From positions 1-64,000 of IMG/VR virus record IMGVR_UViG_3300037485_001872: a DNA stretch of 64,000 bases; one strand, 5' to 3'. The notes under the pieces were generated by a model. That model saw nothing but the letters and a program-made list of their open reading frames with translations. It searched no databases and was not told the DNA's origin. The stretch is from a virus. Positions 32,613 to 59,314 of this stretch are shown here, one piece after another. Positions within the stretch are counted from its first letter, which is position 1; every line of letters starts with the position of its first letter. A program made the translations under genes and the position numbers.

Positions 32613-32703
32613 AGAGATTTTTATGCGGCAATTATTAATAACATTCATATGACATTCGCATGACAATTGCCTATTGCGGTTATGGTATTTAGTATTACCT
32701 TTG
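32613..32703 (+). promoter_or_regulatory. First early promoter: AGAGATTTT..GCGG motif, three TGACA-like half-sites, -7 TACCTTTG
   Basis: AGAGATTTTTATGCGGC 32613; TAACA 32639, TGACA 32650, TGACA 32661; TACCTTTG 32696. Confidence 0.75.
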
Positions 32704-32725
32704 TATTGCCTTATTAATTAAACTA

Positions 32726-32770
32726 CTTAGCACGGATTTACTCCGATGACTGAGGAACGCTCTTTGACAT
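32726..32770 (+). promoter_or_regulatory. Hairpin followed by a boxA-like antitermination signal
   Basis: CGGA-TTTAC-TCCG hairpin, then CGCTCTTTGACAT 32758-32770 (boxA consensus GCTCTTTAACA). Confidence 0.5.
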
Positions 32771-32862
32771 CTTGGCAATTATATAGGGGGTTAACTAAGG
32801 TTAACAACACAAAACCCCTATTCTATGCAAACTAATTTCAATTTTAAAGCAAATTAAAACAC

Positions 32863-33768
32863 ATGGAAACAAACACAATTTTAGACGGTATTTTAGCAGG
32901 TAATGCGCACGTTGAATCGTTAAGGACTCAAGTAATTCAAGCCAAAAAAATGCAATTGCATTCAGGTGTTGAGGGGTTCGAAAGTCCCGAATCTTACGGG
33001 GTTTATAGACATACGGGGGGTGCACCTTTGGGGGTTGTTGGTTCAGTTTTTCAACCAATGGATTTAAACGTATTTATTGACTCGATTGAACAAAGTGTTG
33101 CTAATTGTGGCAATGGTTTGGATATATCTAAGTTACAATATGATGAGTTCAAAGGGGGTTCAAAAGTGGCCTTTTCTTTGCCCGTTAAATCTTACAAACT
33201 TAAAACCCCTCAAGTGGGGGACATAGTTGAAACGAAATTAATGTTTTCAACGGGGTTTGATGGACTAACTAAATGTAGCCTATCTTATATGACTAAGCGG
33301 TTATGGTGTACTAATGGAGCGGCTGCATGGGACAAAAAAACTAGCTTTGAACTTTCCTTTAAAAATACCATTGGGAACCAATTTAAGGTTATGATGTTTT
33401 GTGATGAGGTTATGAATTCAATTAACAATATAGAGGCTTATATTAAGCAACTAAATGAGTTGAATGAATTTAAAGTGACCAAGGAGCAACAAGACAGATT
33501 TGTGACCAAGCTAACAGGCTTTAACATGGGGGAGTATAAAGACCTTAACACTAACAAGCGAAATATTTTAGATAGAATAAATCGTGATATTCTTATTGAA
33601 AGCAATAACACGGGAATGACAGCCTTTAGCTTGTTGCAAGGTATTACAAGATACACCACTCATGAATTGGGCAAAGGGGATGTTAATGCTGTACTTTTTG
33701 ACAATGCAGCTAAACTAAACCAAAAAGCCCATGAACTTGTACTAGTGGAATCATCTAGTTGGAACTAA
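32863..33768 (+). CDS. DUF932-family protein
   Basis: LGVVG..F.P, GG.KV, GFDG, RLWCTNG, T...L..G.T.Y..H pattern; typical early phage gene. Confidence 0.75.
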   Translation: METNTILDGILAGNAHVESLRTQVIQAKKMQLHSGVEGFESPESYGVYRHTGGAPLGVVGSVFQPMDLNVFIDSIEQSVANCGNGLDISKLQYDEFKGGSKVAFSLPVKSYKLKTPQVGDIVETKLMFSTGFDGLTKCSLSYMTKRLWCTNGAAAWDKKTSFELSFKNTIGNQFKVMMFCDEVMNSINNIEAYIKQLNELNEFKVTKEQQDRFVTKLTGFNMGEYKDLNTNKRNILDRINRDILIESNNTGMTAFSLLQGITRYTTHELGKGDVNAVLFDNAAKLNQKAHELVLVESSSWN

Positions 33769-33774
33769 CAAAGG

Positions 33775-33798
33775 AAAGCCCCGAAAGGGGCTTTTTTT
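33775..33798 (+). terminator. Intrinsic terminator
   Basis: AAAGCCCC-GAAA-GGGGCTTT followed by TTTT. Confidence 0.85.
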
Positions 33799-33954
33799 AT
33801 GTCTAAATTTTAGCCCCTTTATTCTAGTTAATATAAATTAGTTAACACACATGTATAACACACACAGATTTAAACTAGTTAACACAAATATAAACACAAA
33901 TATGACATTGTTATGACACAAAAAAGTTGTAACTTTGAAGTCAAATATTAAATT

Positions 33955-34368
33955 ATGGAACCTATACTAATTACTACAGACATTGCCAAAGCTATTGGCA
34001 AGGCTATTGCCGAACAAAGCAAATCTATTCTAACTAACAGAGAAAAAGAATTCAAAGTTAGCTTTAACATTCGAGGGGATGTAAACGTAAAAAAAGGAAA
34101 CGATTTTCAACAAATAGTTAACTTTTCAATTGATTGGCAAAAAGCATTTTTATTCGCACTAAATAAGCTAAATAAAGACACGGCAAATACAGTGTTAAAG
34201 GAATTTTTACAAGCTCCTGAAATTGAAATTACAAAGGAATTCAAAACACGTTGTGATACTATCATTAAAGAAATTAAACAAGCTAGTTTAAAAACCGTAT
34301 CAGGTAAGGTTACAATTAATAATCCTTTTCTATCTACTAATGAAATAGAGGTTTGCGAAAATTGCTAA
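33955..34368 (+). CDS. Hypothetical early protein
   Basis: 137 aa with its own TGACA-box promoter (33903-33937). Confidence 0.55.
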   Translation: MEPILITTDIAKAIGKAIAEQSKSILTNREKEFKVSFNIRGDVNVKKGNDFQQIVNFSIDWQKAFLFALNKLNKDTANTVLKEFLQAPEIEITKEFKTRCDTIIKEIKQASLKTVSGKVTINNPFLSTNEIEVCENC

Positions 34369-34388
34369 ATCGAAATAAGTTAAAACAA

Positions 34389-34416
34389 AAAGCTCACAGA
34401 AATGTGGGCTTTTTTT
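34389..34416 (+). terminator. Intrinsic terminator
   Basis: AGCTCACA-GAAA-TGTGGGCT followed by a T-tract. Confidence 0.75.
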
Positions 34417-34491
34417 ATGACACAAAGATGACATTAAAAAGCTTGTATAATTAAAAAATAGTTGTACCTTTGAGTAACAAATTAAAACATC

Positions 34492-34749
34492 ATGCATAAA
34501 AACTTAGTAGTAACTCGCACAGGCCAAACGGCCACAGGTAAATTAGGCAATTTAATCGGCCACAGTATGGACAGTTCAAACACTGTAAGACCTTTGTCAG
34601 CAAGTGACAAACATTTGCAGCAAATGAATTTAGCTCGTATACGTTTGGCCAAATCATTTGTAGAACCTGAATTGTCAAATGAATTAGCAAAATTCGAAGC
34701 TAGTTTAATTGAATCTAAGGAAGACTTTTATGACATTCAAACTAACTAA
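34492..34749 (+). CDS. Hypothetical early protein
   Basis: 85 aa behind TGACA-box promoter 34418-34472. Confidence 0.5.
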   Translation: MHKNLVVTRTGQTATGKLGNLIGHSMDSSNTVRPLSASDKHLQQMNLARIRLAKSFVEPELSNELAKFEASLIESKEDFYDIQTN

Positions 34750-35003
34750 AATGAAACGCTTAAAATTAGCTCGCTGTAAAAAGCGGGCTTTTTTATTGGT
34801 TGAAAGTATTAATATAGATAAGTTTGTTTATATCTATATTAGTTTGTGTACAATTATTGGTGGGCTTTCCTTACTTTATTTGATGACAAAAAGATGACAA
34901 AACTATTTTGCAGTGTTATAATTAAGTTGTAAATTTGTATCCTAATGATAGAGGTAATAATCCAAACGATAGTTATTTATTCAATCCTAATTTATAACCT
35001 CCT

Positions 35004-35645
35004 ATGTTTATAAAGTTTCAAACTAAGGTGGTAAAACGTAAACAAGTGGTTAAACGTTTGCTATTCTATTACGAGCAAGCCACAGCCACTGAATTAACGT
35101 ACAATTGGTATGTAGAAGCAAACCAATTTTGCCGTGAATTATCCACAGCTTTTAAAACACCATTGTTTCAAGTTGCTGGCATAGTTTCTGCAATGAGTCC
35201 CCAAAAAAATTGGCAAGAAAATAAAAAGCTTGCCTATCAATTCATGAAAGGTAAACGAGGTGGACAAACTAAGCAGCAAATTTTAAAAGCTGAAAGGTGC
35301 TTGATATGTGACAGTGAAACTGAAATATTTTCGTTGCTAACTAAGAAGGGATTAAAAACAAGTTACTTTTATACTAACTTATTACACCCTGATTTTGACA
35401 GTGGGGTGACAATTGATAGACATGCAATCGGTGCTAGTTTAAATGAATTAAAAGACATTAACACAAACATGAAAGCTGCCGTGTTAACAAAGCCACAGTA
35501 CGATTTTTTTGCCTCATGCTTCAATGATGTAGCAAAGGTCAAAAAAGTATTACCATTACAAGTACAAGCCACAGTTTGGCAAAGCTACAGACGGTTGAAA
35601 GGACTTGTTGAAAGTTATAACACAAACGAAGATATTCCATTTTAG
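35004..35645 (+). CDS. Phage helix-hairpin-helix glycosylase-like protein
   Basis: WY..A...VAGIVSAMSPQ.NW..N...K...F..N...VTIDRHA...Y...QA.VW. Confidence 0.5.
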   Translation: MFIKFQTKVVKRKQVVKRLLFYYEQATATELTYNWYVEANQFCRELSTAFKTPLFQVAGIVSAMSPQKNWQENKKLAYQFMKGKRGGQTKQQILKAERCLICDSETEIFSLLTKKGLKTSYFYTNLLHPDFDSGVTIDRHAIGASLNELKDINTNMKAAVLTKPQYDFFASCFNDVAKVKKVLPLQVQATVWQSYRRLKGLVESYNTNEDIPF

Positions 35646-35647
35646 TT

Positions 35648-35884
35648 ATGATAGATTGTAGTACTTATTACGTTTATGCTAATGGTGAAAGGATTGGTAA
35701 AACCATTACGGTTAATGATGGTGTAGATGTTATGGAAAGCATCATGCAAAAAATCAATTCAATTAAGCATTCAAATTATTACACCACAGAATTCAAATCC
35801 AAACTAACTAATATAACCTTCAAAAGGATATATGGTGGACACAGAAATGAAGGAGTTAATTACCACAATGACTTTATATTTTAA
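35648..35884 (+). CDS. Hypothetical protein
   Basis: 78-aa ORF. Confidence 0.45.
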   Translation: MIDCSTYYVYANGERIGKTITVNDGVDVMESIMQKINSIKHSNYYTTEFKSKLTNITFKRIYGGHRNEGVNYHNDFIF

Positions 35885-35942
35885 TGACAAAAAAATGACA
35901 CAGAAACTTTTTTAATTCAAAAATGTTTCGTACCTTTGAATC

Positions 35943-36449
35943 ATGGAAGTAATATATAAAGAAGATGGCCGAGGTACTATCATCACTCCTTTTTTTCATG
36001 AGGTTTATAATAAAAAGGAAAGGATTGAAGTGAATTTTAGCTCATTAGCTAAAGAAATCTTTTCGTTTGCTAAATATGGTGTTATTCAATTTATCATTGA
36101 AACAGACTCTTTAGAAAAAGCAGTTGAATTAGCCAAGGATAGAATAAATCTATTATTTCCTATGTATCCTAAACAAAATGAAATTATAAAGGTTACGGGC
36201 TTTAAATATAATAATGAAAATGTAAAAGTTCCATTTGAGTTATCATTCATGGAAAATACACATCACCAAAATCAATTCACTGCTAATTCCTATAAAACTA
36301 AAATAGGTGACTTATTAAGATATGATTGTAACGGAGATGGTTGGGGATTTTGGTATATTGTAGATGACAATGGAAAAAGAATTTCTGAAAGGTTAAAAGG
36401 AACAACATTTTTAGGTGCAATATCTGATGGTATAATTACAAAGAAATAA
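35943..36449 (+). CDS. Hypothetical protein, leaderless
   Basis: TGACA 35885/35896; TACCTTTG-AATC-ATG start. Confidence 0.55.
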   Translation: MEVIYKEDGRGTIITPFFHEVYNKKERIEVNFSSLAKEIFSFAKYGVIQFIIETDSLEKAVELAKDRINLLFPMYPKQNEIIKVTGFKYNNENVKVPFELSFMENTHHQNQFTANSYKTKIGDLLRYDCNGDGWGFWYIVDDNGKRISERLKGTTFLGAISDGIITKK

Positions 36450-36689
36450 GTGACAAAAAAATGACAAAAAGATTTTGTAGTGTAACGAAAAAATCGTACC
36501 TTTAAATCATCCAAAACTTGGCTTAGTATCCAAAATACAGAGTAGGGGAGCCATGGTTGAAACAAATTGGGTAAAGGAAACAGTTAATCAATATAAACAA
36601 AAATAGTTGTCCATGATGTTGAGAAATGTAGGGGGAATAATGTAGATTTCCCCAAAGTTTCTTTCTTAGGACTAAAAAATAATTAAAAT

Positions 36690-36826
36690 GGGGGATTAGT
36701 AGTAGCGGTTAGAATAGCTAACGTGTAAAGGATAACAAAAGTGGAGTAATTACCCACCATGTTAAACTTCGGATAAACCGAAAAAATACACTTTAGAAGA
36801 CACGGGTTCAAATCCCGTATCCCTCT
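36690..36826 (+). ncRNA. tRNA-like RNA with a structured insert in place of the anticodon loop
   Basis: GGGGGAT/ATCCCTC acceptor; GGTTAGAATA D-loop-like segment; ACGGG-TTCAAAT-CCCGT perfect T arm; CTAA.GTGTA/TACAC.TTAG stem enclosing ~60 nt. Confidence 0.7.
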
Positions 36827-36838
36827 GCCCAAATTTAT

Positions 36839-37010
36839 ATTCCGAAAGGAACGAACAACGAGGCGTCAGCACACGCCTACAATCTAACCTAGTTAGAAGA
36901 GAATTTGGGGTAAAAACACTGCACCGCCCAATATATGTGGCCATCGCAAAGTTGAATTTAGTTCAACAACAAGCCTCGCCTCGTTGAAATTCACAGCGGG
37001 GTTGAGGTAG
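36839..37010 (+). ncRNA. Hairpin-rich non-coding segment downstream of the tRNA-like RNA
   Basis: TTCC-GAAA-GGAA, AGGCGT/ACGCCT, TCTAAC/GTTAGA, GTTGAA/TTCAAC; long-range pair CAACGAGGCG/CGCCTCGTTG. Confidence 0.45.
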
Positions 37011-37212
37011 TGAAATGAAATCAGGAATGTACGTTAAACTAGGGGAACTAAAATACATGTTCCTAGGATTTACAGACTATAAACAAAAATATTGTTTCTT
37101 AGCTGATATACATGGTAACACACATACACAACTTCGTAAAAATTTAACCATATGCATATAATCACCATCCTTGTTATCTTATTTCTTTTATCTGTAATTA
37201 CAGCAAACCGAA

Positions 37213-39900
37213 ATGGAAGCAGAAATAATTAAGAAGCTTGAACGTGGTATTTTTAGAATAACACAAGGTACTGGCACAGCAGTTTCTGAGCGTTGTGGGT
37301 TCTATTTTAAGCTATTAAAGCCACTGAATGAGTTTATGTATGAGGATTTATTTGAAAAATATAAAAAAGCATTACAATTCCGTGACAATAAATTGAAAAA
37401 ATAGTTGTAGCTTTGAAGCATAATATTTAACACATGAACATACAAGAAAACATCATCAGAGAAAAAATCACCTTTAGAGGTGGAGGAGTTGAAATCAGTC
37501 TTAACTCAGTTGGATTTGAAGGAGAAAAAATGACTGCCTACCAAAATTATTTAGGAGGAGGTATGCTAGGTAGAATAGCAAATGACTGCACCATTAAAAA
37601 TTGGAGAGATAATTCTGAGCTAGTTAAAATAGCAGACGAGCTTAGTAGATATATGTTTGAGGTTACAAATCCTGAGGGAGATTGGGAGAGTACTACCTAT
37701 GAACAGAACCAAAACCTACCTATATCAGCTTATTAATCATGAACAAAGAATTGGTAATGTAGTAACTTTTTATCGTTAAAATAAATAATAAAATGAGAAC
37801 ATTTAAAGAATTAAAACAGTCGATTGACAATAACGAAGAATTGGTGTGGAATGACCCAGACCCGATAAAAAACAATGATTATACTATCACATACATTGAA
37901 CCGATTAATGAGGACTTTGATGAATATACACCTATATTAATACAATATGGTGGTGGTAGTGAGGCTGAAGTATTTTTACATGAAATTTTAAAAAAGTAAT
38001 ACAATGAATAAGCAAGAAACAATAAAAACAATCAGAGAAATCATCAGTAATTGGGGAAGTCCGATTACTGACGCAGATATGGAACTAATCAGTTCACCCA
38101 TCATCAACCAGGTGAGCAAAGACCATTTTAGTTTGGCAGAAAGTTTCCATCTCGACTATGTGGGTGTAACAACTTATGTACACGAAATTGTAACCGATGA
38201 AACCGATATGTCATACGAAGACCTTTCGGAAGATATACTAAAAAAAGTAATCATTGCGTTTGTTATTGAAAACTTCAATGAGTTTCAATTGGTTAATACC
38301 ACTAAAGAAAAATTTCGTCCTTACATATATGACAGTGAGGGAGAATATTTAATTGGTGGTGAAGAAGTGGCCGTGTTTATTGAAAGTTTCATAAAACTTT
38401 ATAGTAACTAAGATGAAAACAGAAGATATTTTTTTCGAAAATTATACACCCGAATATAATCAGGTGTTATTAAAAGAACTACAAGCCAAAGAAGATACGG
38501 GTTCAACGCTACCCGAAGATATGTGTTCGTGGAATGGTTGTATGTATGAAACATATGGAGAAGAATTAGATTATGTTATAAAACAACCGAGTAACCGTAT
38601 ATGGACAATCATAGAAGAGGATGGAGTAATGTATATTTCAGCAGGTTATCATATAGTTAACAGATTGGGCTATTTTATTACTAATGAGGAAATCACTGAC
38701 TTTTCAGAAGACTATTTAATAGAGGAATAATGCAAATAGTATTCAATAAAGAAACCGCTGTAGTTGGTAGCATGGATGGTATACATGTATTCAATACCAT
38801 TAACATTGAAAAGCCTGAATACAACTGCCCCGAAGAAGTTGTGGATAAGGTGGTGGAAATGTTTAATGAGGGATATGACTTATCTTGTATAGATGAATGT
38901 TTATTATATGCTAATTGCACAACAGAAGCAAGAGAGGTAATGGTGGAGGGGTTATATAAAATAATGTACCAACCAAAGCTTAATATTGGTAATGATACTT
39001 TTGACACTTATACAGGAGAACTATGCAAATAATATTCGGAAACATAACCTTTAACCACCTGAGCCAAGGAGAGCTTAGTTTGTTTAAAACCAAAAAAGAT
39101 TTGAAGGCTCTTATACACCGTGTAGACCTTACATTGGATGTGAAGGAGGAGAAGCTTGTGGATGTAATTGATTTGAATGAAGGAAACTATTCAGCATGGA
39201 TTGTTCCCGCAAAATTTGAAGGAGAAATTATTTATGAACAAAAATAAATTAACACAACAGGAACGTGATGAAATTAGCAAGGCTAAGAGTACACACAAAG
39301 GACGACTGAAAAATCAAGCAGCAGAAATGCAAGCAGCAAGCCATGACTTAATTCGTCAGGTGCTTCTAAATGATACTCCTAATTGGGGTGGAATGAAACT
39401 AAATGGGATAGATATTGACACGCCATCTCGTAGTGTTTACAAAACATTCAAAAGATAATGGGAGGCTTTGTATTTATTATGGCTGTAGGAATATTTTTTT
39501 ATTGGCTTGGAACGTATGCCGAAAAATAAAATTTATTTCAGTGAAGCTCAACAAGGCTATTGTGAGGGAACTCTCTCAGGTAACAGAAGTGGGAACCAAA
39601 AGGAAATCATTTTGCCCAATGGTAAAAGCATACTACTTTATGAGTATCAATATAGCACGACAATGGTTACGTATCCTGACAGAAAATTGACAAAGTGTTT
39701 GTGCGGAAATTCAACTAAATAACGTATCTTTGTAACATGAAACACTATCAATATTTTTTCAAAACAGAAAGTGGAGAAACTAAGTTGGCTTGGGGTGTAG
39801 CAAAAAGTGAGACGGCATTAAGAAGTAGCCTAGCTAATTTAGATATTCACGGCATCTCTAGGGGACGAGCTAAAACACACAAAAAATGTATTTCCATCTA
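37213..39900 (+). other. Cluster of about 10 small hypothetical early ORFs (37213, 37434, 37793, 38004, 38413, 38730, 39023, 39234, 39737 and others)
   Basis: Tightly packed 54-135 aa ORFs, many acidic, with A-rich leaders and internal TGACA-box promoters at 37372-37415 and 39677-39732. Confidence 0.6.
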
Positions 39901-40315: not shown

Positions 40316-40485
40316 ATTGTTATTTAGCTTAATGATTCTAATAGAATGACAATCGGGGAAGGTATCACCCAAGATAAAAACCGTTTTATGCAAACTAGGG
40401 TAGAATTCAAATGACAAACAAATGACAATTTCCCTATTGTAATTCCCAAATATAGTTGTAGCTTTGTGTTGTAATATTATAGCAT

Positions 40486-40842: not shown

Positions 40843-40848
40843 GGTAGT

Positions 40849-41313: not shown

Positions 41314-44300
41314 AAGCAACTAGAATACAAAGAGACTTCTGTTATGCCTATGATTTTCTATTCACTACAGAAGCAGAACAACTAGCAAGGAAAGCTATTA
41401 TACGTTCCTTCTCTTTAAGTGTAGAAATTCCACGAAGAAACTTCTTTGAATATAATAATGTTTATGACAAATTAATGACAAAAAAACTTGTTTGCATCAA
41501 AAAAATAATATAACTTTGTACCATGTTAAAAGAGTTCGGAATTAAATCAGAAAGTTTTGCTTTATTGGAAGCATTCAAAAAAGAAAGTGAAAAGTTAGGT
41601 GCTGAATATCATACAGTGTTCAATGCTTTCACAGAAGAGAAATTTAAAGATAAGGAGGGGATGTTTTTTGCACAGGCCATTGATGGTACTTGGAGTTTAA
41701 GGTCAGAAGAACAAGAAGGTAAAATACTTTTTGCTTTAACAGGAAGTATTTGTTTAGCTCCTAATTTAGTATTCACTCTTCCTGAGCAGTGGAATGAAGG
41801 AATTGCCGCTATAAAAAATCTTGTAACAGATAGTAAAAAAGTATTTAACCCAAAGAAAATTTATGGGTATGATGCTAAGACTAAGCTTAAAGGAAAATGT
41901 AAACTACATAGCATAGATGAACTTGATAACGTATGGGCATTTGTATCTTGTGAGAACTCAGACTGTTGGGCAGAATCTTTTACAACGGCTCAAGCAGCAT
42001 TGGATTATGTAGGAGAGCGTTTGATGGTGTTCGATGATGTGAAGGAGTTTGGTAAGTGGTTGGCGGCATAAAAATCTCTTTTCATAACTCATTGATAATC
42101 ACACCCCAAGTCAGGTTTCTCCACCGTACGGAGACAAGTTTTTGGTGGGGAAAATGGCCGCATTGAAAAATCTTAACTACTTGATAATCAATGAAAGAAC
42201 TAATTGCATATTACACAGAAATAGGTAGACATGATGTCGTTGCCAATTTAAAGGAAGTACAAATTGACCAAACCATAATAGATAACGAGAATTATTCACG
42301 CCTATCGGATGAATTAGAGAACAGTTTCTATTGGAAATATACCGAAATGGGTTACGATTATTGGAATAATTTGTTTTCTGAATTACTTACGTTAAATTTG
42401 TAAAGCCTTGGTATCAGGGGGTTGGAGGAGGATGGAGAACCCCCTAATATTGTATTCTTGGTACTGTGCAATACCTAGTACCGTGTTTGGCATATTTCCA
42501 AATTGCATATACCATTTTCTCCCACGTCTTTTTCATGTTATTTTATTTGGATACCTCTCTTACTATGTAGGAGGGTTGCTTTCAATTTATGGGGAAAGAG
42601 ATTTTGTTGCGGCAATTTTCTTACAATAACATGACACAATATGTTTGGTGGTTTAAATATCTAGTTGTATCTTTGTTCTGTTAATAATCAACATATGAAT
42701 CCAAAATTAAGAATCCAAAACATTGACGGAGTTACCAAGGAATTTGATAAGAAAGAAGATGCCATTGAGTTTATTCAAAATCTCTTTATAGAAAATGAGG
42801 ATTGGTCAGAAATGAAAAACCCCAATACATATGCAGAATGTGTAAATTACCTAGTAAAGTTTTGTGATAATTGGATATTGATATGAACATACACGAATTA
42901 AAAAAAGAGCATTCTAAGCTAACTAGTATAAATGACCATACAGGGGCAGCTCAGTTAATAATAAATCAATTTGGAACTTTTGATGATAAGTTTAATATGG
43001 GAGTGCTTGCTAGTAAACATGAGAAGCAAGGGTATATGACTCCATGGGATTTAGAGATTAGAGACCAATTGGTTAAGAAGTGGTGGCCTTTCTTTAAGAT
43101 GTTATGTAATGAGGTGGTATAAAAGAGAATGTTAAAAGAGATTTTTAAGCGGCCAAATCCTGATGATAATATGACAATACTTATTTGGTGATGTCAATTA
43201 GTAGTTGTAACTTTGAGCTATGAAAGAATCTAAAAAAGAATTTATTAAACGTAACATTAAATCTTATGGTAGAGAGGATTTTATCTCTTTGCTTAATGAA
43301 AATATTCAAAATCTAGCTGAGGATGGAATGGCTAATGAGAATAAGTTTCAGATTAAATGGTTTTGTGATATGTTAATTCAAATAGAAAAAGATGAACTTT
43401 AAAAAACAATACCGAGACTTTGAAATGCGTATTCTACGAGAACTAGAAACTCGTGTTCTTAGAAGTACCTATAAGTCAAAGCATGTTGATACCCATGCTA
43501 TACGAGTTAATATATTTGGGTACACTGAGCTAGTTCATCTAAATGGTAAGTTAGTTTTCCTAGATGATTCAGGCTATGCTTATTCTATATTTTCTGATTG
43601 TACCTTGGAGGATTTGATTGATGTTCTTAATTCTTGTATAGACTAGATGGATAAGAGATTTTTTAGCGGAATTTTCCTGACAATAAAATGACAAAATAAG
43701 CTTGGTGGTGTGAAACCCTTGTCGTACCTTTGAAAGACAATAAAAACAACATGAAAAAAGTATTATATCTTAATTATGGCAGACCATTCCCAACTGCTGA
43801 ACCTGATGGGGAAAGTGTAAAATTTCTTGATATTAAGTCATTTAGAATTGTTTGGGGAAATATTGAGGTGACGGATTTGAAGGGGGAGATACATTACCTA
43901 CCCATGGTGTGTAATTTGTTTTATTACAATGGTGTATACTACTCAGATATTTGGGTGGAAATGATTCATGATAATGTCGCCTCAGAACAATTCGACATTA
44001 ATAAAACTAAGCTAACTAATCCACTTCCTATTCAACACCCAAGTTTAGGCGAGGTGCTTCAAATACTAACAGATGAAATTGAGGTGGATGGGGAAACTAT
44101 GCAATACATTTTGGAGGAGTGTAATATGGACGAGCAAATGTTCAAGCAACTTCTAAATACCAAGGACTATGTTTCAAATTACCTAGCAGAGTATTTAGCT
44201 GAAAGAAAGGAAGGGAAAGGAAAGAATAAGGAGCTGAAACACCGCCTAAAAATGATTGAGGAAGATATGGCCGCCATTGTATCCTTTATAAAAGAGGGGG

Positions 44301-44702
44301 GTTTATCTGAAACATTTAAAAACCCAACACCTTTCACTGATGAAGCTTGGACTCATATAAGCAACATTGAAATAGCTTGTAACCTACAGGCAGATGAATC
44401 TTTGAATTGGAAGCCTTTTAGAAAGAACTAGTATGAATCCAGAAGAAGAATCATTAAAGACTTTTTGGAGAGATGTGAGGAATCAGGAGATGACAATTAG
44501 ATATGCAGCAGAACTAGTATGGAACTATCTTTACTCCCACCCGAAAGAATTCTTAACTCGGAAGCAGTTCATAGAGGATAACCACCTCAATAGTCAATTG
44601 GAATTTATAGTAGTTAATCAGGTTTGGAATGATATTGAGAATAATGACACCCTTATATATTGGGACTTTAAATCTTATTATGAAAACCTTACACTAATAT
44701 GA
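41310..44702 (+). other. Cluster of small hypothetical early ORFs (41310, 41523, 42191, 42695, 42883, 43220, 43392, 43751, 44433)
   Basis: ORF track, with starts corrected to lie downstream of TGACA-box promoters at 41465, 42621, 43172 and 43678. Confidence 0.6.
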
Positions 44703-44762
44703 CATTAAAAGTTTGTAGTGTAATAAATTAGTTGTAGCTTTGTATCAACAAATAGAAACAAC

Positions 44763-45296
44763 ATGAACCTACCGACAACTTGGCTAGAAGCCCTAGAAAA
44801 AAAGAAACAAGAAGCAGAAAGTAACCCAACAGCCTTTAAATTTAATGATGGTGGAAGAGCCTCAGCAGGATTTAAGGGAACCACGGGAGATTGCGTTGTA
44901 AGAGCCATTGCCATTGCTACTAAGCAAGAGTATAAATTGGTGTATGACGAACTGACAGAACGTATTAAATCTTTCGCCACCTCCTCTCGGAGTAGAGCCG
45001 CCAAGAGTATTAAAACGCATTCACCATCTAAAGGAGTTCACAGGGAGGTTTATGAAAAATATCTATCTGAACTAGGATGGAAGTTTGTTCCCACCATGGG
45101 AATTGGAACAGGATGCACATTACATATCGGGGATGTAGTGAAGAAGGAGGGGGAAATTCTTTGCTCCTCTAATCGGATTATTGCTAGAGTGAGCAAGCAT
45201 TTAGTGGCCATTGTAGAAGGGGTTGTTGAAGACACCTATGATTGTACAAGAGGAGGTAACAGATGTATCTATGGATATTACACTCAGCTGACATAA
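44763..45296 (+). CDS. Papain-like thiol peptidase-fold protein (DCVVRA family)
   Basis: GDCVVRAIAIAT...KHLVAIVEGVVEDTYDC; Cys-His-Asp order. Confidence 0.55.
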   Translation: MNLPTTWLEALEKKKQEAESNPTAFKFNDGGRASAGFKGTTGDCVVRAIAIATKQEYKLVYDELTERIKSFATSSRSRAAKSIKTHSPSKGVHREVYEKYLSELGWKFVPTMGIGTGCTLHIGDVVKKEGEILCSSNRIIARVSKHLVAIVEGVVEDTYDCTRGGNRCIYGYYTQLT

Positions 45297-45335
45297 ATAT
45301 TTTGGTATTTAAAAATTAAGTTGTAACTTTGAATC

Positions 45336-48300
45336 ATGGAAGAAATAGTAAAAGCATTAGAAATTGAAATGTTAAGACTTGTTCGAAAGTTACAAGATAA
45401 ATCAGCAACTAAGCAAGATGCTATAAATTTGGCAGTGCTTACTGAGTGTTTAGAAAAAATAAATAAATTCATTAAATAAATCATGTTTATAGTTAATTAC
45501 AAAAGAAAAGACAATGGTGAGTCATTGGGTTATCACTTGGATACATTTGGTAGTTTAGGTAAGAAAGAACACGCTAAATGTTATGGTGATGATACTGACA
45601 CTCAGGAAGATATTGATAGTCAATTAGCGGTGATTAGAAAAAACTTAAACCATCGCCTAAGTGAAGGTGGTGGAGGTGGAATGTTTGCTGAGATATTTAT
45701 TAAGCAAAAGGAGCAATCATATCAAGGATTAAATGCCGACCAAATTGATATTGTTGCAGAAGCAGTTGTTTATAAAGAACAAGAGTTAGTTGCTCATACA
45801 ATAGTTGATGAAAATGGTGTACATAAAATTCGTAAACCATTGGTTGATGTTGTTGTGGACATGGTTAAAAAAGTTGCAGGTTATGGCAAAGATTAATTTA
45901 GATAGACACGTTTGGGAGGATGTTAAAGATTATGAATCTTTATATCAAATTAACCAAGAAGGTGTGGTGATTCAAAGTACAGGAGTCTCAATAATGGAGT
46001 CTAAACTTTATTCCCCTCTACCTGAGAATGAGAGACAAGGTAAATTAGGTTGTATAAATACTCAACTTCTTGACAAATAAATGACAATACTTTCTTGTTT
46101 ATATCAAACATCGGTTGTAGCTTTGTTCTATGCAAATGAAACACTTTAATATCATTGCCGAGGATGGAAAGGTTGTAGGAACAATTGTAAATTGCTCCTC
46201 AGACCCACACGGAAGACTCTCGTTAACTAAAAGGATGAAGGTGGCACTAGAGGAACACTTTGATGTAGATGTTGTCTTAAATGAGCTCCCTGACGTTTTT
46301 ACAAACTCTCCTAAATACACTATGAAAATTTTTAGAGGTGGGTATAGGGAGGAAATATCAATAATGGAAACTTGGATATATTAAACAAATTAAAATGAAA
46401 ACAGAGATAACAAAAGGAAAATGGCAAGTAAGGGATGAAGGAAGTAATGGTATTTACATTAAATCTGAGGAACACACTAGTGCCATAGGTAAATTTTTTA
46501 CTAATAACGAAGTGATAAAGAATAGAGAAGAAGCCTTGGCGAATGCTAACTATATAGTGAATGCTGTAAATTCTCATGAAGAATTAAAGGCAGCATTGGT
46601 TGAAGCTAAAAGATGTTTATTAAATAGTACATATGATGAACTTTGCACACCTATCAAAATAATAGACCGAGCTCTTAAAAACTGTGTACCTGAATGCCCT
46701 TATAAAGAAGGGGAGTTAATATGGGCGAAAACTGCTCTTGGATTAGAGGTATTACCATGTACAGGAAAAATAGTTGATGGAGATATTGAAATTTGGCTTT
46801 GGATGGATAAGAGGAGTGATAGAAAAACTACGACTAAATTCCATGCTTCAACAAATGGATTAACTTTCCCTGAGTAATTATGACAAATTTTAAAGTAGGC
46901 TACCATAAAAGATTCTCAAAGGACGGAACGGTTTATACCCAATCTGTACGAATTAATATGAATACATTAATATCTTTGAGAGAAGTTAGACAGAGTGAAA
47001 TTGATTTAGGTTTTCCTAGGCGAAAAGAATATGACCCAACAGGCTACCATGATATTCCTCATTTTAGTTGTAGGTATGAAGGAGTCGGTAAGAAAGCTAC
47101 ATGCTATTCTTATATGACCCTAACTCAGACACGTTTTTCTAATTTATTTTTGAAGCTAAATTTAAAAGACAGGAACACTTATTTAATAATTGAAAAATAA
47201 TGGAAGGCTTTTCAGGAGATTTAGAAAAATATAAAAAATGTCGAGACTTTTTAAAAGCATGTGGTTATGACGTAAACTCAGCTATACATGTTGGTGGTAA
47301 CAGGTTTGAATTTGAAGAGGCATCATTTAATAGTGAAAAGAAAGGATGTCGTAATATTCATAAGATTTTAGCCTGGGTGGGGGATAATGGTGTTGGGTAT
47401 AAAGTAAAGAAAATAGGTTGGATTTGTATTGATTAAAATATGAGAAGAGTACTTTTTAAAAAATGGAAAGATTTTCCTGACAATAAGGTTAGATGTGGTA
47501 TGGTAGGAATGTTTGAAGAAGATTTTACACATGAGGGTGATTTTCATCAGTGGGCTCCCGCATATGAAGAGTTTGAATCTGGGGCTGGAAATTACATAGT
47601 AGCTTTAATCGAAACAACTGATGGAACTATAGAGGAAGTGCTTCCTAAAAATATGAAAATAAAATTCGGAGTGTTTTGTAATCAAATGGTGGGAAGAATG
47701 GTGAGGGCTAATTCCTTAGTTGAGGCCATAAATAACCTACCCATTAAGCTTAAAAAGCATTGGAGTGTTATTATGTACCGAGATGAAGATGGTCTCTCTA
47801 TTAGCGTTAGAAAAGAGTTTTTAGAGGATATGTCTCTTGCAGAAGTTGTAGAAGACCATGTGCTTTTTGGTGATACAGATGCCGATATTATTGTTTTAAA
47901 TCCTAGTGGAGTAGGAGTAATTTATTTATAAACTATGATAAATCTTGATAATTTTGACGGCCATTTAGTATTGTATTGCAAAAATAATTACTATGTACCC
48001 AATATAGACTTTTTAACAGGGTTAAGAAGGATTTGGGCTATTCGCTGTGGATATGACTATAAGGATGGTAACACCTCTGTAGATAGATATATAGCAGACC
48101 ATTTGTATGATGTTTTGAAATTAACAGATTTTCATCCTAGCTTACAAGAACTTTTACATAATTACATCGTAAACAATTATTATGATGATGGTAAAACTGC
48201 CATTGAAAATATAATTATGTTTTATAGGAGTAGAATAAGTATGCTTATAATAAGGGAAAAGGTAAACACCTATTGGAAACCTCTAATACATCTACCTAAA

Positions 48301-48671: not shown

Positions 48672-49106
48672 TATTCAGCATAATCGTATTAATAATTTTT
48701 ATCTTAACCACCCCACATTTAATAAATTGGATGTGGAGAAATATTCTTGATGATTTAATCGTGCTAGGAATATTTATTTCAATCATATACACTGTAACAA
48801 CAGCGTATGCACTAAAGTACTTAATCATATGGGCTTACCCATTACTAGTAGCATAATAAAGAGACATAAAAATGACAAAAAAATCTTGTAGCGTAACAAA
48901 AAAGTTGTACATTTGTATCATCAAATAACATGAAACTATCTACAGAAATAATTGAAGGAATCACATACACCAAAGTGGAAGGAGTGGGACAAACGTTTTC
49001 AGTGAAAGGAGTTAAGTCTATCAAAGAAGTACTTTCTATATTAGATAAGATAGAAAAGGACTCAGAACGGTTTTTTACTAAAGTGGCTAGTATTTCTATT
49101 TTGGAG

Positions 49107-51279: not shown

Positions 51280-51742
51280 TATCTAATTTTATAGATTAGG
51301 AATATTTTATAAAAATGTATTTGAAGCTGGAAAAGCTATTAATAAAACTGGTTTTGAAATTCACGAATTAATATTAAAAAATAATGAATCTTTTATATAT
51401 GTATGATTTACAAACAAAGGATAAAGTTTTAACATTACAATATAATGACAATACTTTCAAATATTAATTGTATCTTTGTACTATGAATCAATTTATAATA
51501 CTCACAGCACTATGTTTTATTGTACCAATGTTTTTAGGAAGGAAGAAAGATGAAGCTTAAAATTGTAATTTTAATAGCTCTCTGCTCATTACTATCTAAC
51601 TGCCAAAGTGTTTTTGTATGGACAGTACAAGATGTTATTGGTTTAGGTTTTCTAGGTCTAATAATAATTATTGGTTTATTTATTGGGTTGTTAATCCTCC
51701 TTGATAAATTTAAAATGTGGTGGAAAAATAATTTTAAATAAA

Positions 51743-52069
51743 ATGATTAAAGTTTATATAGCAAGTCCCTACACTAAAGGGGATGTTTCAGAAAATGTAC
51801 GTCTTCAAATGACTACTATGAATACATTAATAGAAGAAGGGTATTCCCCATTTTGTCCTCTTTTATTTCACTTTCAGGATTTAATGTTTCCTCAAGCTTA
51901 TAATAAGTGGATAGCTCTTTCAGCAGATTGGGTACTTAGTTGTGATGTTCTTTTAAGATTAGAAGGAGAAAGTGCTGGAGCAGATGGGGAAGTGCGTTTA
52001 ACCACTGAAAATAATATCCCTGTAGTGTTTTCTCTTACTGAATTATATTCGATGTATGAACCCACCTAA
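51743..52069 (+). CDS. Nucleoside deoxyribosyltransferase-like (DUF4406/DUF1937-type) protein
   Basis: VYIASPYT...SPFCP...CD.LLRL.GES.GA..E. Confidence 0.65.
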   Translation: MIKVYIASPYTKGDVSENVRLQMTTMNTLIEEGYSPFCPLLFHFQDLMFPQAYNKWIALSADWVLSCDVLLRLEGESAGADGEVRLTTENNIPVVFSLTELYSMYEPT

Positions 52070-52589
52070 AAAATATCCCTGTAAAGAATGCGGAACTTTA
52101 GTTGTCATTAGAAGTAAGGGAAAATGTCCGTTATGTCGGTCATTAGAGTTAAAATCAGCCTCAATGGGGGATATTTCATACAAAACACCTAAAAAAGGGG
52201 AAAGTAAACAACAAAAAGCAAGAAAAGAAAAAAGAGATTGTCTCTCACAATTCTTTAAAGAGCAAATTGAATTATTGGCACAGAATCCATATTGTAGAGA
52301 GACAGGAGTTCAAATTATACCGAGCTCTTTTTCAGTTTGTCATATTCTCCCTAAGAGAAATCATTTTTCTATACAATGCCACCCAGACAATGTAATATTT
52401 CTACATGTGGATGTACATTCTCGCTTTGATAGGCTCCTAGATGAACATAGATTTTCTGAGCTAACTAAGATGAATATATGGCCTATAGTTAAATTTAAAT
52501 TAGAGAGGCTACTTCCTGAGTTAAAGGAGGTGACAAAACTAGGGGAAGCCTTAAAAGATTTTCTTTATGAAATTAATGCACAAAAATGA
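52056..52589 (+). CDS. Zinc-binding HNH-like nuclease
   Basis: CKECG...CPLC; CRETG...CHILPK...N...L...H..FD. Confidence 0.55.
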   Translation: MNPPKKYPCKECGTLVVIRSKGKCPLCRSLELKSASMGDISYKTPKKGESKQQKARKEKRDCLSQFFKEQIELLAQNPYCRETGVQIIPSSFSVCHILPKRNHFSIQCHPDNVIFLHVDVHSRFDRLLDEHRFSELTKMNIWPIVKFKLERLLPELKEVTKLGEALKDFLYEINAQK

Positions 52590-52633
52590 CAAATAAATTT
52601 TGTAATAACAATAAAAACTTGTAAATTTGCACT

Positions 52634-55957: not shown

Positions 55958-56440
55958 TTAACGTATCTTTGTATTATGGAAATTTTAGATAGAGCTATAA
56001 AGGGGGAATCCCTTAACGCAAAGGAAAAAGAGGAACTTACAAAACACCTCTCCCAATACGATGGAACCCCCTACTTGCAGGAAATCCTAAACAAAATACC
56101 GAGTTTAAAATATATTGAATTACCAGAAATTCCACTATGACAATTATAATAACAATCCTCCTAATTCTATTCATCACCAAACTAATGTGGAGATGGAATT
56201 TAGACTTCTCTGAAACAAGTGATGGTGAATGGTATGTACGTGGATTCTGGAGTACAAGAAATCCAGATGGTAGTTTTAATAGACATGATAAACTTTTAAT
56301 GAGAATGTAATGAATAAAATAGTTAAAATTTACGACTTTTTGGTTGATATAGTGTTAATAGGCACTATTGGGGGTATAATTGTCTATTATCTATTTCACA
56401 TATTACAATTTATTTACTACACCCTTACTAATTTTTTTAT

Positions 56441-57399
56441 ATGAAAAAAGATGATTTTGGAACCATCACTGATTTTGGTGATAGATATACAACCTGCGAT
56501 AGATGTGTTTACAAAGATTTAGGTATGGGTGGTTTTAATACTGTATGTAGACATTGTATGAAAACTCATACAGAAACAGAGGGCTATTCAGCACTACCTG
56601 AGAAGGAAGATGTATTTAGTACTCTTGGAAATATGTTAGACCCCACAACAAAGTTTGTAAATAATATAGGCTCATGTTTTCCTACTGAGGCAAAATATGG
56701 AGAAGAAAGGACTGTAGTTAATAGTGGTAAAGAATTTATAGAATACTTTGCTAACACTGGAGAAAAACGTTGGTTAGCTCCAAATGAATCGGCAACATAT
56801 AAACTAAAATGGGTGTTATGCGAATAGAATGGACTTTTGAAGAAGACCACATGTTTGTTAAACTAGCTGGGAAAACATTTCAAGCAGATGTTTTATTTAT
56901 TGATAATGAGGAAAAGCATTATGGGGTTGTGGCTGAGTATGGACAAGATTATATTGATTTTAACGTAGCAAGAATATTATAATGGAAAAAACAGCAGTAG
57001 ACTATTTAATAGAAATTCTAGAAGCACCTTGCAGGGGTATACCAACCTTCGTCATTGAAAAAGCTAAAGAGATTCATAAACAGCAGCTATTAGATGCGTG
57101 GAAACAAGGTAATAATGAAGGATATTTAAATACTCTCATAACAGCAGAGGATTATTATAATGACACCTATGGAAAATAAAACAGCTTTACAGCAATTAAT
57201 AGAAGAATTAAGTATAGTTAACCCACATTCAGTAGGTCAGGTTATTTTAATGGTTAAACACTATTTAAAAACTGAAAAAGAACAGATTTGTGATGCTTAC
57301 TTTCAGGGGATAGGTTTTTGTCTAAATGAACGAGAGGGTACGGGAGATACTGATGATGCTAGTGCTGAGTTTTACTTTACAGAAACCTTTAAACAATGA
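56441..57399 (+). other. Small hypothetical ORFs (56441, 56982, 57160)
   Basis: 56982 and 57160 are related (KTA...LIE.L...K.Q..DA......Y...T). Confidence 0.5.
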
Positions 57400-57553
57400 A
57401 ATATTTAACAATAGACAAAACAGCTAAAATTTCTATTTACTCAAAGTCTATTAAACCTACAACTAATTCAGAATTAATTATAGTGGATTTAGTTGAAAAT
57501 CAGGTGAGTTATGATGGAGGAAATTTGTGGGTACTTACTAAGTGGGCAAGATA

Positions 57554-58549
57554 ATGATACTACAACAAGGTGATGTTATTAAATTTTCTAGCGATGCTAC
57601 ATTTCTAGAAGAAATACCAAAAGGTAATTGGCTCCTTAACTTGGACACAGTGTCCATGTATTTGTCCAAGCTTCCTCAATTTACCCTTCCATCAAAGATT
57701 TATGGGGATTATTTGACCACCAGTAAACATTACTTATCGTCCTTTAATTCCCTTCCAAACTCCACTGGGGTGTTACTATCGGGGAGTTCGGGTAGTGGAA
57801 AAAGCTTACTAGCTAAGATGGTTTGCGAAATGTCCAACCTTCCTGTAATTATTATTAGTGAATACTATACAGGAACACAGTTTCATAAGGTTTTAAATGA
57901 AATATCACAGGATGTTGTAATTTTCATTGATGAGTTTGAGAAGATTTATGACACCCATGAGAAGCAAAATGAATTTTTGCCAATTTTAGATGGTGTTTTT
58001 CAGAATAAAAAACTGTTTATTTTCACCACAAATAATCCTTCGGTGAATAAATTCCTTTTAAATCGGCCAGGTAGAGTCAGATACCATAGGCATTTCACAG
58101 GGCTTTCTGAAGAGCTTATTGAAGAAGTACTTTCGGATAATGTAACCGATGTAGATGTTAAGAAGCAAATATCTGAAATCTGTCTTACGTTAGGTGATGT
58201 TTCCTATGACGCTTTACAGTCTATTTTACAAGAAGTTAATATGTATAGCATTTCCCCAGCTGAGGCTGTAAATCTTTTGAATATAGAGGTGCAATCTTCG
58301 CATTACAGAGTGTTTCTCATAATAAAGGGAAAACATTACACTTCTTCCTTTGAAGGCCATCCTGTGGTAAATGAGGAGTACTCAGTGGGGTATAAAGACG
58401 ATGGGGGTTGGTGGGATAAGTCGTACATTGTAAAATTAAGGGATTTTGATATTTATTATGAATCTGGGGGACGTGTTGAGTTAAGACATAAAGAGGAAAC
58501 CACTGTTCTTAGGTTTGAAAAAATAGTTCCATATAAATTTGAACTATGA
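57554..58549 (+). CDS. AAA+ ATPase
   Basis: GSSGSGKS, IFIDEFEK, LDG, FTTN, NRPGR. Confidence 0.85.
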   Translation: MILQQGDVIKFSSDATFLEEIPKGNWLLNLDTVSMYLSKLPQFTLPSKIYGDYLTTSKHYLSSFNSLPNSTGVLLSGSSGSGKSLLAKMVCEMSNLPVIIISEYYTGTQFHKVLNEISQDVVIFIDEFEKIYDTHEKQNEFLPILDGVFQNKKLFIFTTNNPSVNKFLLNRPGRVRYHRHFTGLSEELIEEVLSDNVTDVDVKKQISEICLTLGDVSYDALQSILQEVNMYSISPAEAVNLLNIEVQSSHYRVFLIIKGKHYTSSFEGHPVVNEEYSVGYKDDGGWWDKSYIVKLRDFDIYYESGGRVELRHKEETTVLRFEKIVPYKFEL

Positions 58550-58588
58550 CATTGTTTTTACACAAAATATTCGTACCTTTGTATTGTA

Positions 58589-59092
58589 ATGTCTGATGAA
58601 GAATATTTAAAAGGGTGTAAGCAAAATTCACAATTTCACCAGAAAGCCCTATACGATGCTTTTTCCAAGCAAATGTTTGGAGTGTGTTTGCAATATTGTA
58701 AAAATAAACACCAAGCTGAGGATGCATTGCAGGAAGGGTGGTTGAAGGTATTTAAGTATATTAAATCTCTAACTCTTACAGGTTTGTTAGTGGGATGGAT
58801 TCGTAAAATCATGGTGCACACCTGTCTAGATATTAATAGAAAAAATAACAATAATTTAGTTGAATATAATGATGCAATGGGTGTAATGGTGTCCCCGTCA
58901 AATAATATGGATGCTAAATACCTTCTCTCTGTTATAAATAAACTCCCAGAAGGTTATAAACAAGTGTTTTTATTATTTGCTGTTGAGGGATGGAGTCATA
59001 AACAAATAGCAGAACAATTAAATATTCAGGAGGCGACATCACGGACACAGTACTTGAGGGCTAGAAATATGTTACGTAAAATATTATGTTAA
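58589..59092 (+). CDS. ECF RNA polymerase sigma factor (Bacteroidota host-like)
   Basis: Region 2 AEDALQEGWLKVF...GWIRKI; region 4 LPEGYKQVFLLFAVEGWSHKQIAEQLNI.E.TSRTQ..RAR. Confidence 0.88.
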   Translation: MSDEEYLKGCKQNSQFHQKALYDAFSKQMFGVCLQYCKNKHQAEDALQEGWLKVFKYIKSLTLTGLLVGWIRKIMVHTCLDINRKNNNNLVEYNDAMGVMVSPSNNMDAKYLLSVINKLPEGYKQVFLLFAVEGWSHKQIAEQLNIQEATSRTQYLRARNMLRKILC

Positions 59093-59314
59093 AATGTAAG
59101 TGGAATTCGGGAAACCTAGCGATTCTTTGCTCATTCTGTTCTAAAATCTTAAAAACAGGGAATGAGTTTTCAGAAGAGGAACATAAATGTATAAGAGGGG
59201 ATGTTGAACTCCCAGCACAATATTGTACAACTTGTAATAACAGCCTTTGGAAAATTCTTAGGAATAATACAAAAAAATGACAATACTCTCAACTATTAAT
59301 TGTATATTTGCACT

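Follow-up and report, generated by a model that had tools for sequence, protein, structure and literature searches.

What acts on the rightward promoters that are repeated through the fast-changing region of an uncultured virus genome, and could a single protein read them all? The question was raised by the first 64,000 bases (positions 1-64000, hereafter the window) of IMG/VR record IMGVR_UViG_3300037485_001872, a linear virus record of 134,122 bp estimated to be 88% complete. About 20 rightward promoters in this window are preceded by a twin box, TGACA-N6-TGACA, in which two half-sites are repeated head to tail with an 11-bp period. An initial annotation had assigned these promoters to one activator bound just upstream of the -33 element, either a host regulator of the OmpR/PhoB family or a winged-helix protein of the phage, and had suggested that it might tie infection to the phosphate status of a Flavobacterium host.

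The phage is crAss-like and uncultured, comes from freshwater, and has Cellulophaga phages as its closest cultured relatives. Pfam identified the crAss tail ring proteins 1 and 2, and PHROGs identified the portal and the terminase, the latter sharing 39% identity with its counterparts in Cellulophaga phages phi4:1 and phi17:2 (145 kb) and 38% with that of an epsilon crAss-like gut phage. Near-identical DNA was present in sequencing runs from sediment, lake water and wastewater. Gene calls were made by a greedy choice of open reading frames (ORFs). In the following, G000 denotes the full 134-kb record, G001-G005 denote other phage records, and G414, G415 and G417 denote relatives.

The twin box and its core promoter

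The boxes formed a motif of constant geometry, in excess over chance, which was biased to one strand and one region and attached to host-type core promoters. With up to one mismatch allowed, TGACA-N6-TGACA occurred 28 times in the window, as compared with a mean of 4.43 in 100 shuffles (largest 11); 25 of the matches lay on the + strand, and 23 of these fell within 32639-58562. The exact pattern TGACA-N5-ATGACA was found 10 times in forward and once in reverse orientation in the whole 134,122-bp record, and the reversed-pattern control gave 0 and 0. Reverse-oriented box pairs were located at 31109, 63612 and 74325. The pattern joining box and promoter, TGACA-N30-32-TAnnTTTG, had 16 matches on the + strand and none on the - strand, whereas 200 first-order Markov controls averaged 0.62 with a maximum of 4. 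One of the 16, a single box at 34605 within an ORF, was probably due to chance. The initial annotation had named positional enrichment over random-sequence controls as a check on its proposal, and the excess of 16 over 0.62 provides it. All 21 of its coordinates were borne out when read back against the sequence, including the shifted versions at 33903, 37383, 51446, 58547 and 59278, which are real. The TAnnTTTG -7 element that it placed at the listed promoters was present at 20 of the 21, the sequence at 36497 being TACCTTTA.

TGACA ranked first among the 1024 five-mers at 30-32 nt before the -7 box. On the + strand of the whole record, TGACA started 35, 36 and 37 nt before TAnnTTTG in 9, 6 and 1 cases, respectively, and a second peak at 46-48 nt comprised 10 cases, with a single such case on the - strand. 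Alignment of the 16 promoters of the main register (defined below) revealed four conserved blocks, GACA, ATGACA, TTG and G..GTA.CTTTG, with no conservation in the spacers; A residues were abundant between the boxes and past them. Because the blocks are conserved while the spacers vary, the blocks seem to be maintained, not merely copied.

The core was a Bacteroidota primary-sigma promoter, TTG-N18-20-TAnnTTTG, a -33 TTG and a -7 TAnnTTTG reportedly making up the consensus of Bacteroidota. The exact pattern fitted 13 of the 16 main-register promoters, and a -33 TTG was seen by eye near its expected place in 15 of them, while it was absent at the middle-register sites 51446 and 59278. The boxed class preferred TAnCTTTG, and the other promoters of the phage, on both strands, nearly always had TATATTTG and no boxes. 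Sigma-70-type promoters numbered 92 in 32000-51999, as compared with 93.2 expected, and no conserved -10 partner was found 16-18 nt downstream of either box, so that the boxes were rejected as the -35 element of a second promoter. In 9 of the 21 boxed promoters (-7 boxes at 35931, 39725, 41511, 43208, 45324, 46118, 51471, 52622 and 59303), an ATG lay exactly 12 nt past the T of the -7 box, or 4 nt past its G, and mRNAs from these promoters would be leaderless or nearly so.

A crAss-like Cellulophaga phage, phi14:2, offers a comparison. Its early genes are reported to be transcribed by a virion polymerase without a common motif, and its middle genes by the host polymerase (Drobysheva et al., bioRxiv 10.1101/2020.03.07.982082). 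The middle promoters that we read upstream of g070, g075, g108 and g110 consisted of an A-rich stretch, TTG and TAnnTTTG, the same core as that of the boxed promoters and of the plain TATATTTG promoters here. In contrast, no twin TGACA accompanied them, the motif giving 2 matches with at most one mismatch in phi14:2 versus 6 for the control.

Placement of the boxes and a candidate mode of action

The boxes were found in three registers. In the main register (16 sites), they started 46-47 and 35-37 nt before the -7 box; the second half-site ended 30-32 nt before that box in all 16, with start-to-start distances of 35 nt (n=9), 36 nt (n=6) and 37 nt (n=1). In the middle register (37372/37383, 51435/51446 and 59278), the starts lay 36 and 25 nt before the -7 box and a box stood where the -33 element would be. 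In the close register (33903 and 58547), they lay 27 and 16 nt before it, with the -33 TTG between the boxes. The registers differed by steps of approximately 10-11 nt, about one helical turn, which implies that the boxes are kept on the same face of the DNA. If transcription starts, as assumed here, some 12 nt downstream of the T of the -7 box, the main-register boxes are at about -58/-54 and -47/-43, and they end approximately 8 nt upstream of the -33 element, not overlapping the core (16 of the 21 sites).

Arrays of at least three phased half-sites occurred twice, as compared with 0.00 in 100 shuffles. A three-half-site array on the + strand (35396..35422; TGACA, TGACA, AGACA) lay inside ORF 35004-35645 with no promoter behind it. 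A four-half-site array (18478..18515, +; TTACA, TGACA, TTACA, AGACA) lay over the leftward portal promoter, spanning it from the -33 TTG to the start codon (TATATTTG from 18488 on the - strand, ATG at 18475), and is a candidate repression site.

The fixed distance (+/-1 nt), the one-turn registers, the unconserved spacers, the restriction to one strand and region and the array over a late promoter all point to one DNA-binding protein. We estimate at roughly 0.55 the probability that the twin TGACA boxes are tandem, same-face sites of one sequence-specific DNA-binding protein acting on the host primary-sigma polymerase. Such a protein would bind head to tail, probably as a dimer or short oligomer. 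At the 16 main-register promoters its position immediately before the -33 TTG would allow it to contact the polymerase and stimulate transcription. At five promoters the boxes, one or two helical turns closer, would bring it over the -33 element or in place of it, and the three registers are what would be expected of a protein that has to meet the polymerase on one side of the helix. From the four-box array, it would probably block the leftward portal promoter. We infer the binding of the protein, the direction of its effect (activation or repression) and its timing from this arrangement. The claim of the initial annotation that one activator works from just upstream of the -33 element is consistent with the distinct rightward promoter class, the helically phased repeat and the fixed register, but the phosphate link and the candidate protein attached to that claim found no support, as described below.

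The boxes might instead be operators at which a late shut-off protein or a host silencer turns the class off. The cores do look complete unaided, with a -33 TTG and a -7 box in 13 of 16, the boxes overlap the core at 33903, at 58547 and at the portal promoter, and cooperative binding to phased repeats is a common mode of silencing. However, at 16 of the 21 sites some 8 nt separate the boxes from the -33 element, with their distance held to +/-1 nt, which is typical of contact activation and needless for occlusion, and we regard repression of the whole class as improbable.

Boxes in other phages and in bacterial chromosomes

The comparison of twin boxes between phages took in 5 box-bearing records and 29 related records. 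Twin TGACA boxes were carried by G001 (37 kb), G002 (70 kb) and G005 (45 kb); the start-to-start distance was 36 nt in G002 and 35 nt in G005. Near the end of the latter, a crAss-like record, positions 1570-1640 (locus L143) held seven TGACA-type units with an exact 11-bp period and varying spacers, followed directly by a TTG / TAACTTTG promoter. G002 and G005 had only the portal, the terminase and a ring protein in common with the present phage, and G001 had none of these. Across the box-bearing phages, the search for shared proteins (blastp, phmmer and PHROGs) returned only the portal, the terminase, the ring protein and a short acidic motif protein.

Several results weigh against the reading of the boxes as sites of one dedicated protein. 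No small protein common to all four box-bearing phages was found. Among 27 IMG/VR relatives (terminase identity 31-46%; 8 of them at least 90% complete), 0-1 exact twin boxes were present per record, versus 11 here; twin boxes in phi4:1 and phi14:2 were not above the control; and no substitute motif stood at the box position in four relatives. With 29 relatives lacking the boxes, the clade gives no comparative support. In viral contigs at large, four phased TGACA units occurred at 120 or more loci versus 102 for the control ACAGT, and arrays with variable spacers made up 46 of 101 matches for TGACA versus 26 of 83 for the control among the matches listed, the two sets overlapping via TGACAGT units; phased TGACA arrays are not clearly commoner than those of the control five-mer. 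No RNA run was among the sequencing runs that matched the phage. Within the phage, like flanks at 42621, 43161 and 43678 mark paralogous promoter copies, so the 21 sites do not represent 21 independent events. The chromosomes and the search for a regulator in the phage, both treated below, add to the same side.

A Flavobacterium host was an assumption of the initial annotation. The composite of twin box and promoter was found in none of 400 other Flavobacteriales genomes, only the seed genome having it, and 7 times in the 134-kb phage. The single-box composite occurred 13 times in the phage (about 97 per Mb), versus 68 times in 61 Flavobacteriales genomes of approximately 200 Mb (0.33 per Mb). 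If the host belongs to the Flavobacteriales, its chromosome seems to lack such sites, which argues against a host regulon. No host-wide regulon was found in the Flavobacteriales sample or in three genomes with the boxed hemA promoter described below that were scanned whole.

These densities also bear on the possibility that the polymerase itself reads the boxes, through sites for the alpha C-terminal domain like those of an UP element or through another part, making very strong early promoters that need no extra factor. A pair of sites with an 11-bp spacing that borders the -33 element lies where the UP subsites of Escherichia coli do, and the sequence between and after the boxes is A-rich. 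The boxes of G001-G005 fall in the first few kb, further boxes of G001 and G002 lying deeper in; were the box end the first to enter the cell, it would arrive before any phage protein had been made, and portable cassettes would work best with host parts only. Nevertheless, TGACA stands at this place 0.33 times per Mb in Flavobacteriales as opposed to about 97 times in the phage, and no boxes were found at this position on strong promoters of the sampled Flavobacteriales, as would be expected of an UP element in a host. In addition, fixed polymerase contacts leave the two other registers and the portal array unexplained, and 29 relatives with the same promoter cores have no boxes. We consider direct reading by the polymerase quite unlikely.

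The phosphate link of the initial annotation amounts to saying that the boxes are Pho boxes, with which host PhoB, of the OmpR family, ties the accessory genes to phosphate starvation. Sites of the OmpR/PhoB family, such as the E. coli Pho box and the PhoP boxes of Bacillus subtilis and Salmonella, are direct repeats with an 11-bp period and a TGTCA-like core, and the E. coli Pho box replaces a -35-type element and is oriented with transcription. The phage sites resemble them in their head-to-tail 11-bp repeats, their TGTCA/TGACA-like core, their position next to or over a -35-type element and their whole-turn registers. A Pho-type half-site repeat with an 11-bp period is met when the complement strand is read, TGACA being the complement of the E. 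coli PhoB half-site; members of the family act in either orientation and at one-turn steps, and phoH is indeed carried by the phage (29330-30001; Pfam PhoH, E 1.9e-44), as the initial annotation had stated. Unlike in the E. coli Pho box, however, all the sites here have the opposite orientation, and at 16 of 21 the boxes precede an intact -33 element without replacing it. In contrast to OmpR/PhoB systems, no response regulator came to light, no linked phosphate genes were found and the polymerase is of the Bacteroidota type. The phoH gene lies outside the box region and has no box, and the composite was absent from all 400 of the other Flavobacteriales genomes. Twin TGACA was present upstream of none of 13 pstS-like genes, taken from 12 of 31 sampled Flavobacteriales genomes, a weak and not final test, as the sample need not include the host, the starts of the genes were guesses and some of them could lie within operons. 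The literature search on Flavobacterium or Bacteroidetes yielded no Bacteroidota Pho box, and the sole conserved bacterial target found, hemA, is a haem gene and not a phosphate gene. A Pho regulon is thus highly unlikely.

That target emerged when the composite with ATGACA was sought across 185,579 species genomes, which gave 45 places, some three quarters of which belonged to Bacteroidota as judged by record title. In 12 cases the composite preceded hemA, the gene for glutamyl-tRNA reductase, with hemH running divergently, in members of the Chitinophagaceae and in one unclassified Bacteroidota, and a thirteenth had hemH adjoining (loci L096, L101, L104, L106, L111, L117, L123 and L126-L131). 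The site consists of TGACAGTnnAATGACA, 9 nt, TTG, 18 nt and TAnTTTTG, the conserved TGACAGTnnAATGACA pair lying 35 nt, start to start, before the -7 box of hemA. The boxes, the orientation and the 35-nt distance match those of the phage in 12 genomes; unlike in the phage, there is one site per genome, at a haem-synthesis gene, the full design being found only at hemA in the three Chitinophagaceae genomes scanned whole. The hemH-hemA pair has the look of a so far undescribed site at which a dedicated regulator controls haem synthesis, and to our knowledge these divergent promoter boxes of Chitinophagaceae are not known from print. As hemA promoters carry the boxes, a cellular protein can presumably use the twin-box design. 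In one Prevotella genome (L099, L108 and L112), three paralogous SusC-type (CarboxypepD_reg) genes shared a twin TGACA box and promoter design.

Within the phage itself, the search for a regulator with Pfam and PHROGs gave only a sigma factor, a weak HU-like match (23738-24172) and a DnaA-C-like protein (67821-68108). The candidate of the initial annotation, a basic protein of 128 aa (24165..24551, -), matched nothing in Pfam or PHROGs, and its predicted likeness to winged-helix folds in the Atlas was weak (TM 0.48-0.58). Its homologues occur in phi4:1 and G415, both box-free, and it gains no support as the regulator. The sigma factor, of the extracytoplasmic function (ECF) type (58589..59092, +; Sigma70_r2 and r4_2), has no counterpart in four relatives and shares only 23-32% identity with the sigma genes that some crAss-like phages of the gut carry; it was rejected as box reader, being absent from G001, G002, G003 and G005, and the geometry is unfit for a -35/-10 pair. 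The DnaA-C-like protein was rejected as a partner: it is present in G000, G001 and G003 and absent from G002, which is complete, and from G004 and G005, and the DnaA signature is kept in the G001 copy and not in the G000 copy. The product of 71903-72454, a replisome-organiser homologue, was dismissed as a special candidate. Presence/absence profiling singled out no candidate, as nearly every gene at 32.6-50 kb is unique to the phage when set against four relatives.

Whether the protein that reads the boxes is encoded by the host or by the phage is a matter of roughly even odds. The portability of the boxes across unrelated phages and the hemA site favor a host factor, and their absence from the sampled Flavobacteriales chromosomes and from all relatives favors a phage factor or a host outside the Flavobacteriales. 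We tentatively suggest, as a possibility short of an even chance, a broader version in which the boxes are a portable plug-in enhancer on ordinary host promoters of unrelated Bacteroidota phages. It would be read by a conserved cellular protein, such as the hemA regulator or a polymerase-associated factor, or by a new small phage protein family that activates the class and blocks the portal promoter. If this were true, phages would press a host regulator into service for an entire group of takeover genes, and the module would drive the exchange of cassettes between phages.

Genes behind the promoters and comparison with known systems

The main-register promoters, all on the + strand, began with the first of the region (32639..32703), in which TAACA 32639, TGACA 32650 and TGACA 32661 were in phase, a -33 TTG came next and TACCTTTG at 32696 was the -7 box, upstream of the DUF932 gene 32863-33768. 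Boxes at 34418/34429 (-7 box 34465; 34418..34472), 34884/34895 (34930; 34884..34937) and 35885/35896 (35931; 35885..35938) came next, the last with its start codon 12 nt past the TA. The promoter with the variant -7 box TACCTTTA (boxes 36451/36462; -7 box 36497; 36451..36504) was followed by approximately 500 nt without a + strand ORF of at least 20 aa. Further promoters had boxes at 39677/39688 (-7 box 39725; 39677..39732), 40412/40423 (40459; 40412..40466), 41465/41476 (41511; 41465..41518), 43678/43689 (43725; 43678..43732) and 46071/46082 (46118; 46071..46125). The first half-site was TTACA, followed by TGACA, at 42621/42632 (-7 box 42668; 42621..42675), 44689/44700 (44735; 44689..44742) and 45278/45289 (45324; 45278..45331), and AGACA at 48862/48873 (48908; 48862..48915). 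It was degenerate at 43161..43215 (TGATG 43161, TGACA 43172; -7 box 43208) and at 52576..52629 (ATGCA 52576, TGACA 52587; -7 box 52622).

The remaining promoters were likewise on the + strand. Those of the close register comprised 33903..33937, with boxes 27 and 16 nt before TAACTTTG (33930) and the -33 TTG between them, upstream of ORF 33955-34368, and 58547..58581 (TGACA 58547, TTACA 58558; -7 box TACCTTTG at 58574), which immediately precedes the sigma-factor gene. Those of the middle register were 37372..37415 (TTACA 37372 and TGACA 37383, 36 and 25 nt before TAGCTTTG at 37408), 51435..51478 (TTACA 51435 and TGACA 51446, 36 and 25 nt before TATCTTTG at 51471; no -33 TTG) and the single-box 59278..59310 (TGACA 25 nt before TATATTTG at 59303), in which the sequence behind the box resembles that at 51446.

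Nearly all ORFs at 32.6-50 kb lacked a family in Pfam and PHROGs and a homologue in G414, G415, G417 and phi4:1. Further right, boxed promoters preceded some replication genes (exonucleases, 53.5-56 kb) and the sigma factor. The claim that the boxes govern the whole early/accessory programme went too far: they cover only 32.6-59.3 kb, and the rightward genes at 25-32 kb and 59-75 kb have plain promoters. On the preferred reading, the boxes would define a temporal class made up of the ORFan-rich, fast-changing region, some replication genes and the sigma-factor gene of the phage, and the repeated promoters would double as recombination joints for gene cassettes.

Signs of such recombination came from run X5, which holds a relative 90-95% identical. 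One contig joined 43202 to 45319, within the promoters at 43161 and 45278, via 14 letters common to the two, and further deletion ends lay at 42675, 44754 and 36454, at or beside promoters; the joint and the deletion ends, each from a single low-depth metagenome contig, match the idea of cassette exchange as a hint only. An upstream flank of approximately 25 nt (AAGAGATTTT..GCGG..) was common to three neighbouring cassettes (42596-42620, 43136-43160 and 43653-43677), which suggests tandem duplication of promoter-plus-gene units. Terminator-like sites in 32000-51999 numbered 13, as compared with 8.8 expected (standard deviation 2.9), with no regular stem-loop partner.

On the strength of these joints, of the common flanks and of the absence of the downstream genes in four relatives, one might see in the boxes a part without regulatory role, a repeated promoter module that spreads with cassettes by recombination and is kept by descent. 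We find this extremely unlikely, because the spacers have diverged fully while the blocks are kept, which points to selection on the boxes, and because the same boxes recur at the same distance in phages without other DNA likeness and at hemA promoters.

The PeSL cassettes of T4-type phages are the closest counterpart of this arrangement; they are described as repeated modules with host-type promoters that recombination removes or swaps (Arbiol et al. 2010, PMC2839356). As with PeSL, many copies of one strong host-type promoter module lie between small, presumably non-essential genes of a fast-changing region, the genes are absent from four relatives, and copies may recombine, as the X5 joint with its 14 shared letters hints. 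In contrast to PeSL, there is no regular stem-loop terminator, the extra element is a twin putative protein-binding box, and the phage is crAss-like, its closest cultured relatives infecting Bacteroidota.

Other features of the genome stand beside the boxed promoters. The stretch 36505-37010 (+) behind the promoter at 36451, the one without an ORF of at least 20 aa, was predicted to fold much more stably than shuffled sequence (z -4.69) and is a possible non-coding RNA. It contains a tRNA-like module (36690-36826) with a 7-bp acceptor pairing and a T-arm, which matched the T-arm of the Rfam tmRNA model at 16.5 bits, far below threshold, and was called by ARAGORN as a tRNA with a 64-nt insert at relaxed settings only; the Rfam scan of the window gave no family at threshold. 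A second promoter class heads structural genes and consists of an extended -33 block ATTTTATnnnCTTTGAAA, 19 nt and TATATTTG, with four leftward members on the - strand (9440-9495 and 18488-18540 in the window; 116460-116510 and 127966-128015 in G000).

The genome bears a heavy load of homing-endonuclease-type genes (GIY-YIG, HNH and NUMOD in Pfam and PHROGs), some of them between structural genes. They lie at 14811-15716, 18535-19173, 25365-26111, 26951-27385, 28225-28770, 31235-32209, 48396-48668 (a short GIY-YIG fragment) and 52056-52586 in the window, and at 75336-75986, 117140-117802, 119924-120886 and 122041-122712 in G000. Giant ORFs of 4974, 2354 and 2018 aa are on the - strand of the record, and the first (G000 75986-90910) encodes a polyvalent protein with ADP-ribosyltransferase, LPD23 and radical-SAM domains. 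The DFDxD motif was absent from ORFs of at least 500 aa in the record, so a virion RNA polymerase, if present, would be too diverged for detection by this motif.

Among regulators of other phages, lambda CII recognizes TTGC-N6-TTGC with a period of 10, straddling -35, the MotA boxes of T4 are single and replace -35, and the sites of phi29 p4 are inverted repeats. The boxed class resembles the targets of all three in the placing of a short motif at a set position on many promoters, for what would be one phage-timed protein, and resembles the phi29 p4 system further in that one class would be switched on and another possibly blocked. Unlike in lambda CII sites, the period here is 11, the core is different and the -33 element is preceded, not straddled, by most sites. 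Pfam and PHROGs found no homologues of phi29 p4, lambda CII or T4 MotA in the phage. Phage promoter classes of the activator type are already known, and so are repeated promoter cassettes; a search of the literature turned up neither the twin-box version, nor any TGACA boxes of Bacteroidota phages, nor a Pho box of Bacteroidota, the phi14:2 promoter logos being outside its scope.

Gene timing in crAss-like and other Bacteroidota phages is little known, phi14:2 being the one studied case. Beyond a virion polymerase and plain host promoters, the present phage would add a third layer, a regulator-type promoter class of approximately 20 transcription units, with a possible mirror site on the late structural promoter of the portal. 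The motif is strong and simple enough for capture of the binding protein, and the hemH-hemA site offers a cellular entry point to the question of which protein reads the boxes. With the motif one may further predict which genes of metagenomic phages are co-regulated, and examine whether repeated promoter modules drive the exchange of cassettes outside the T4 group.

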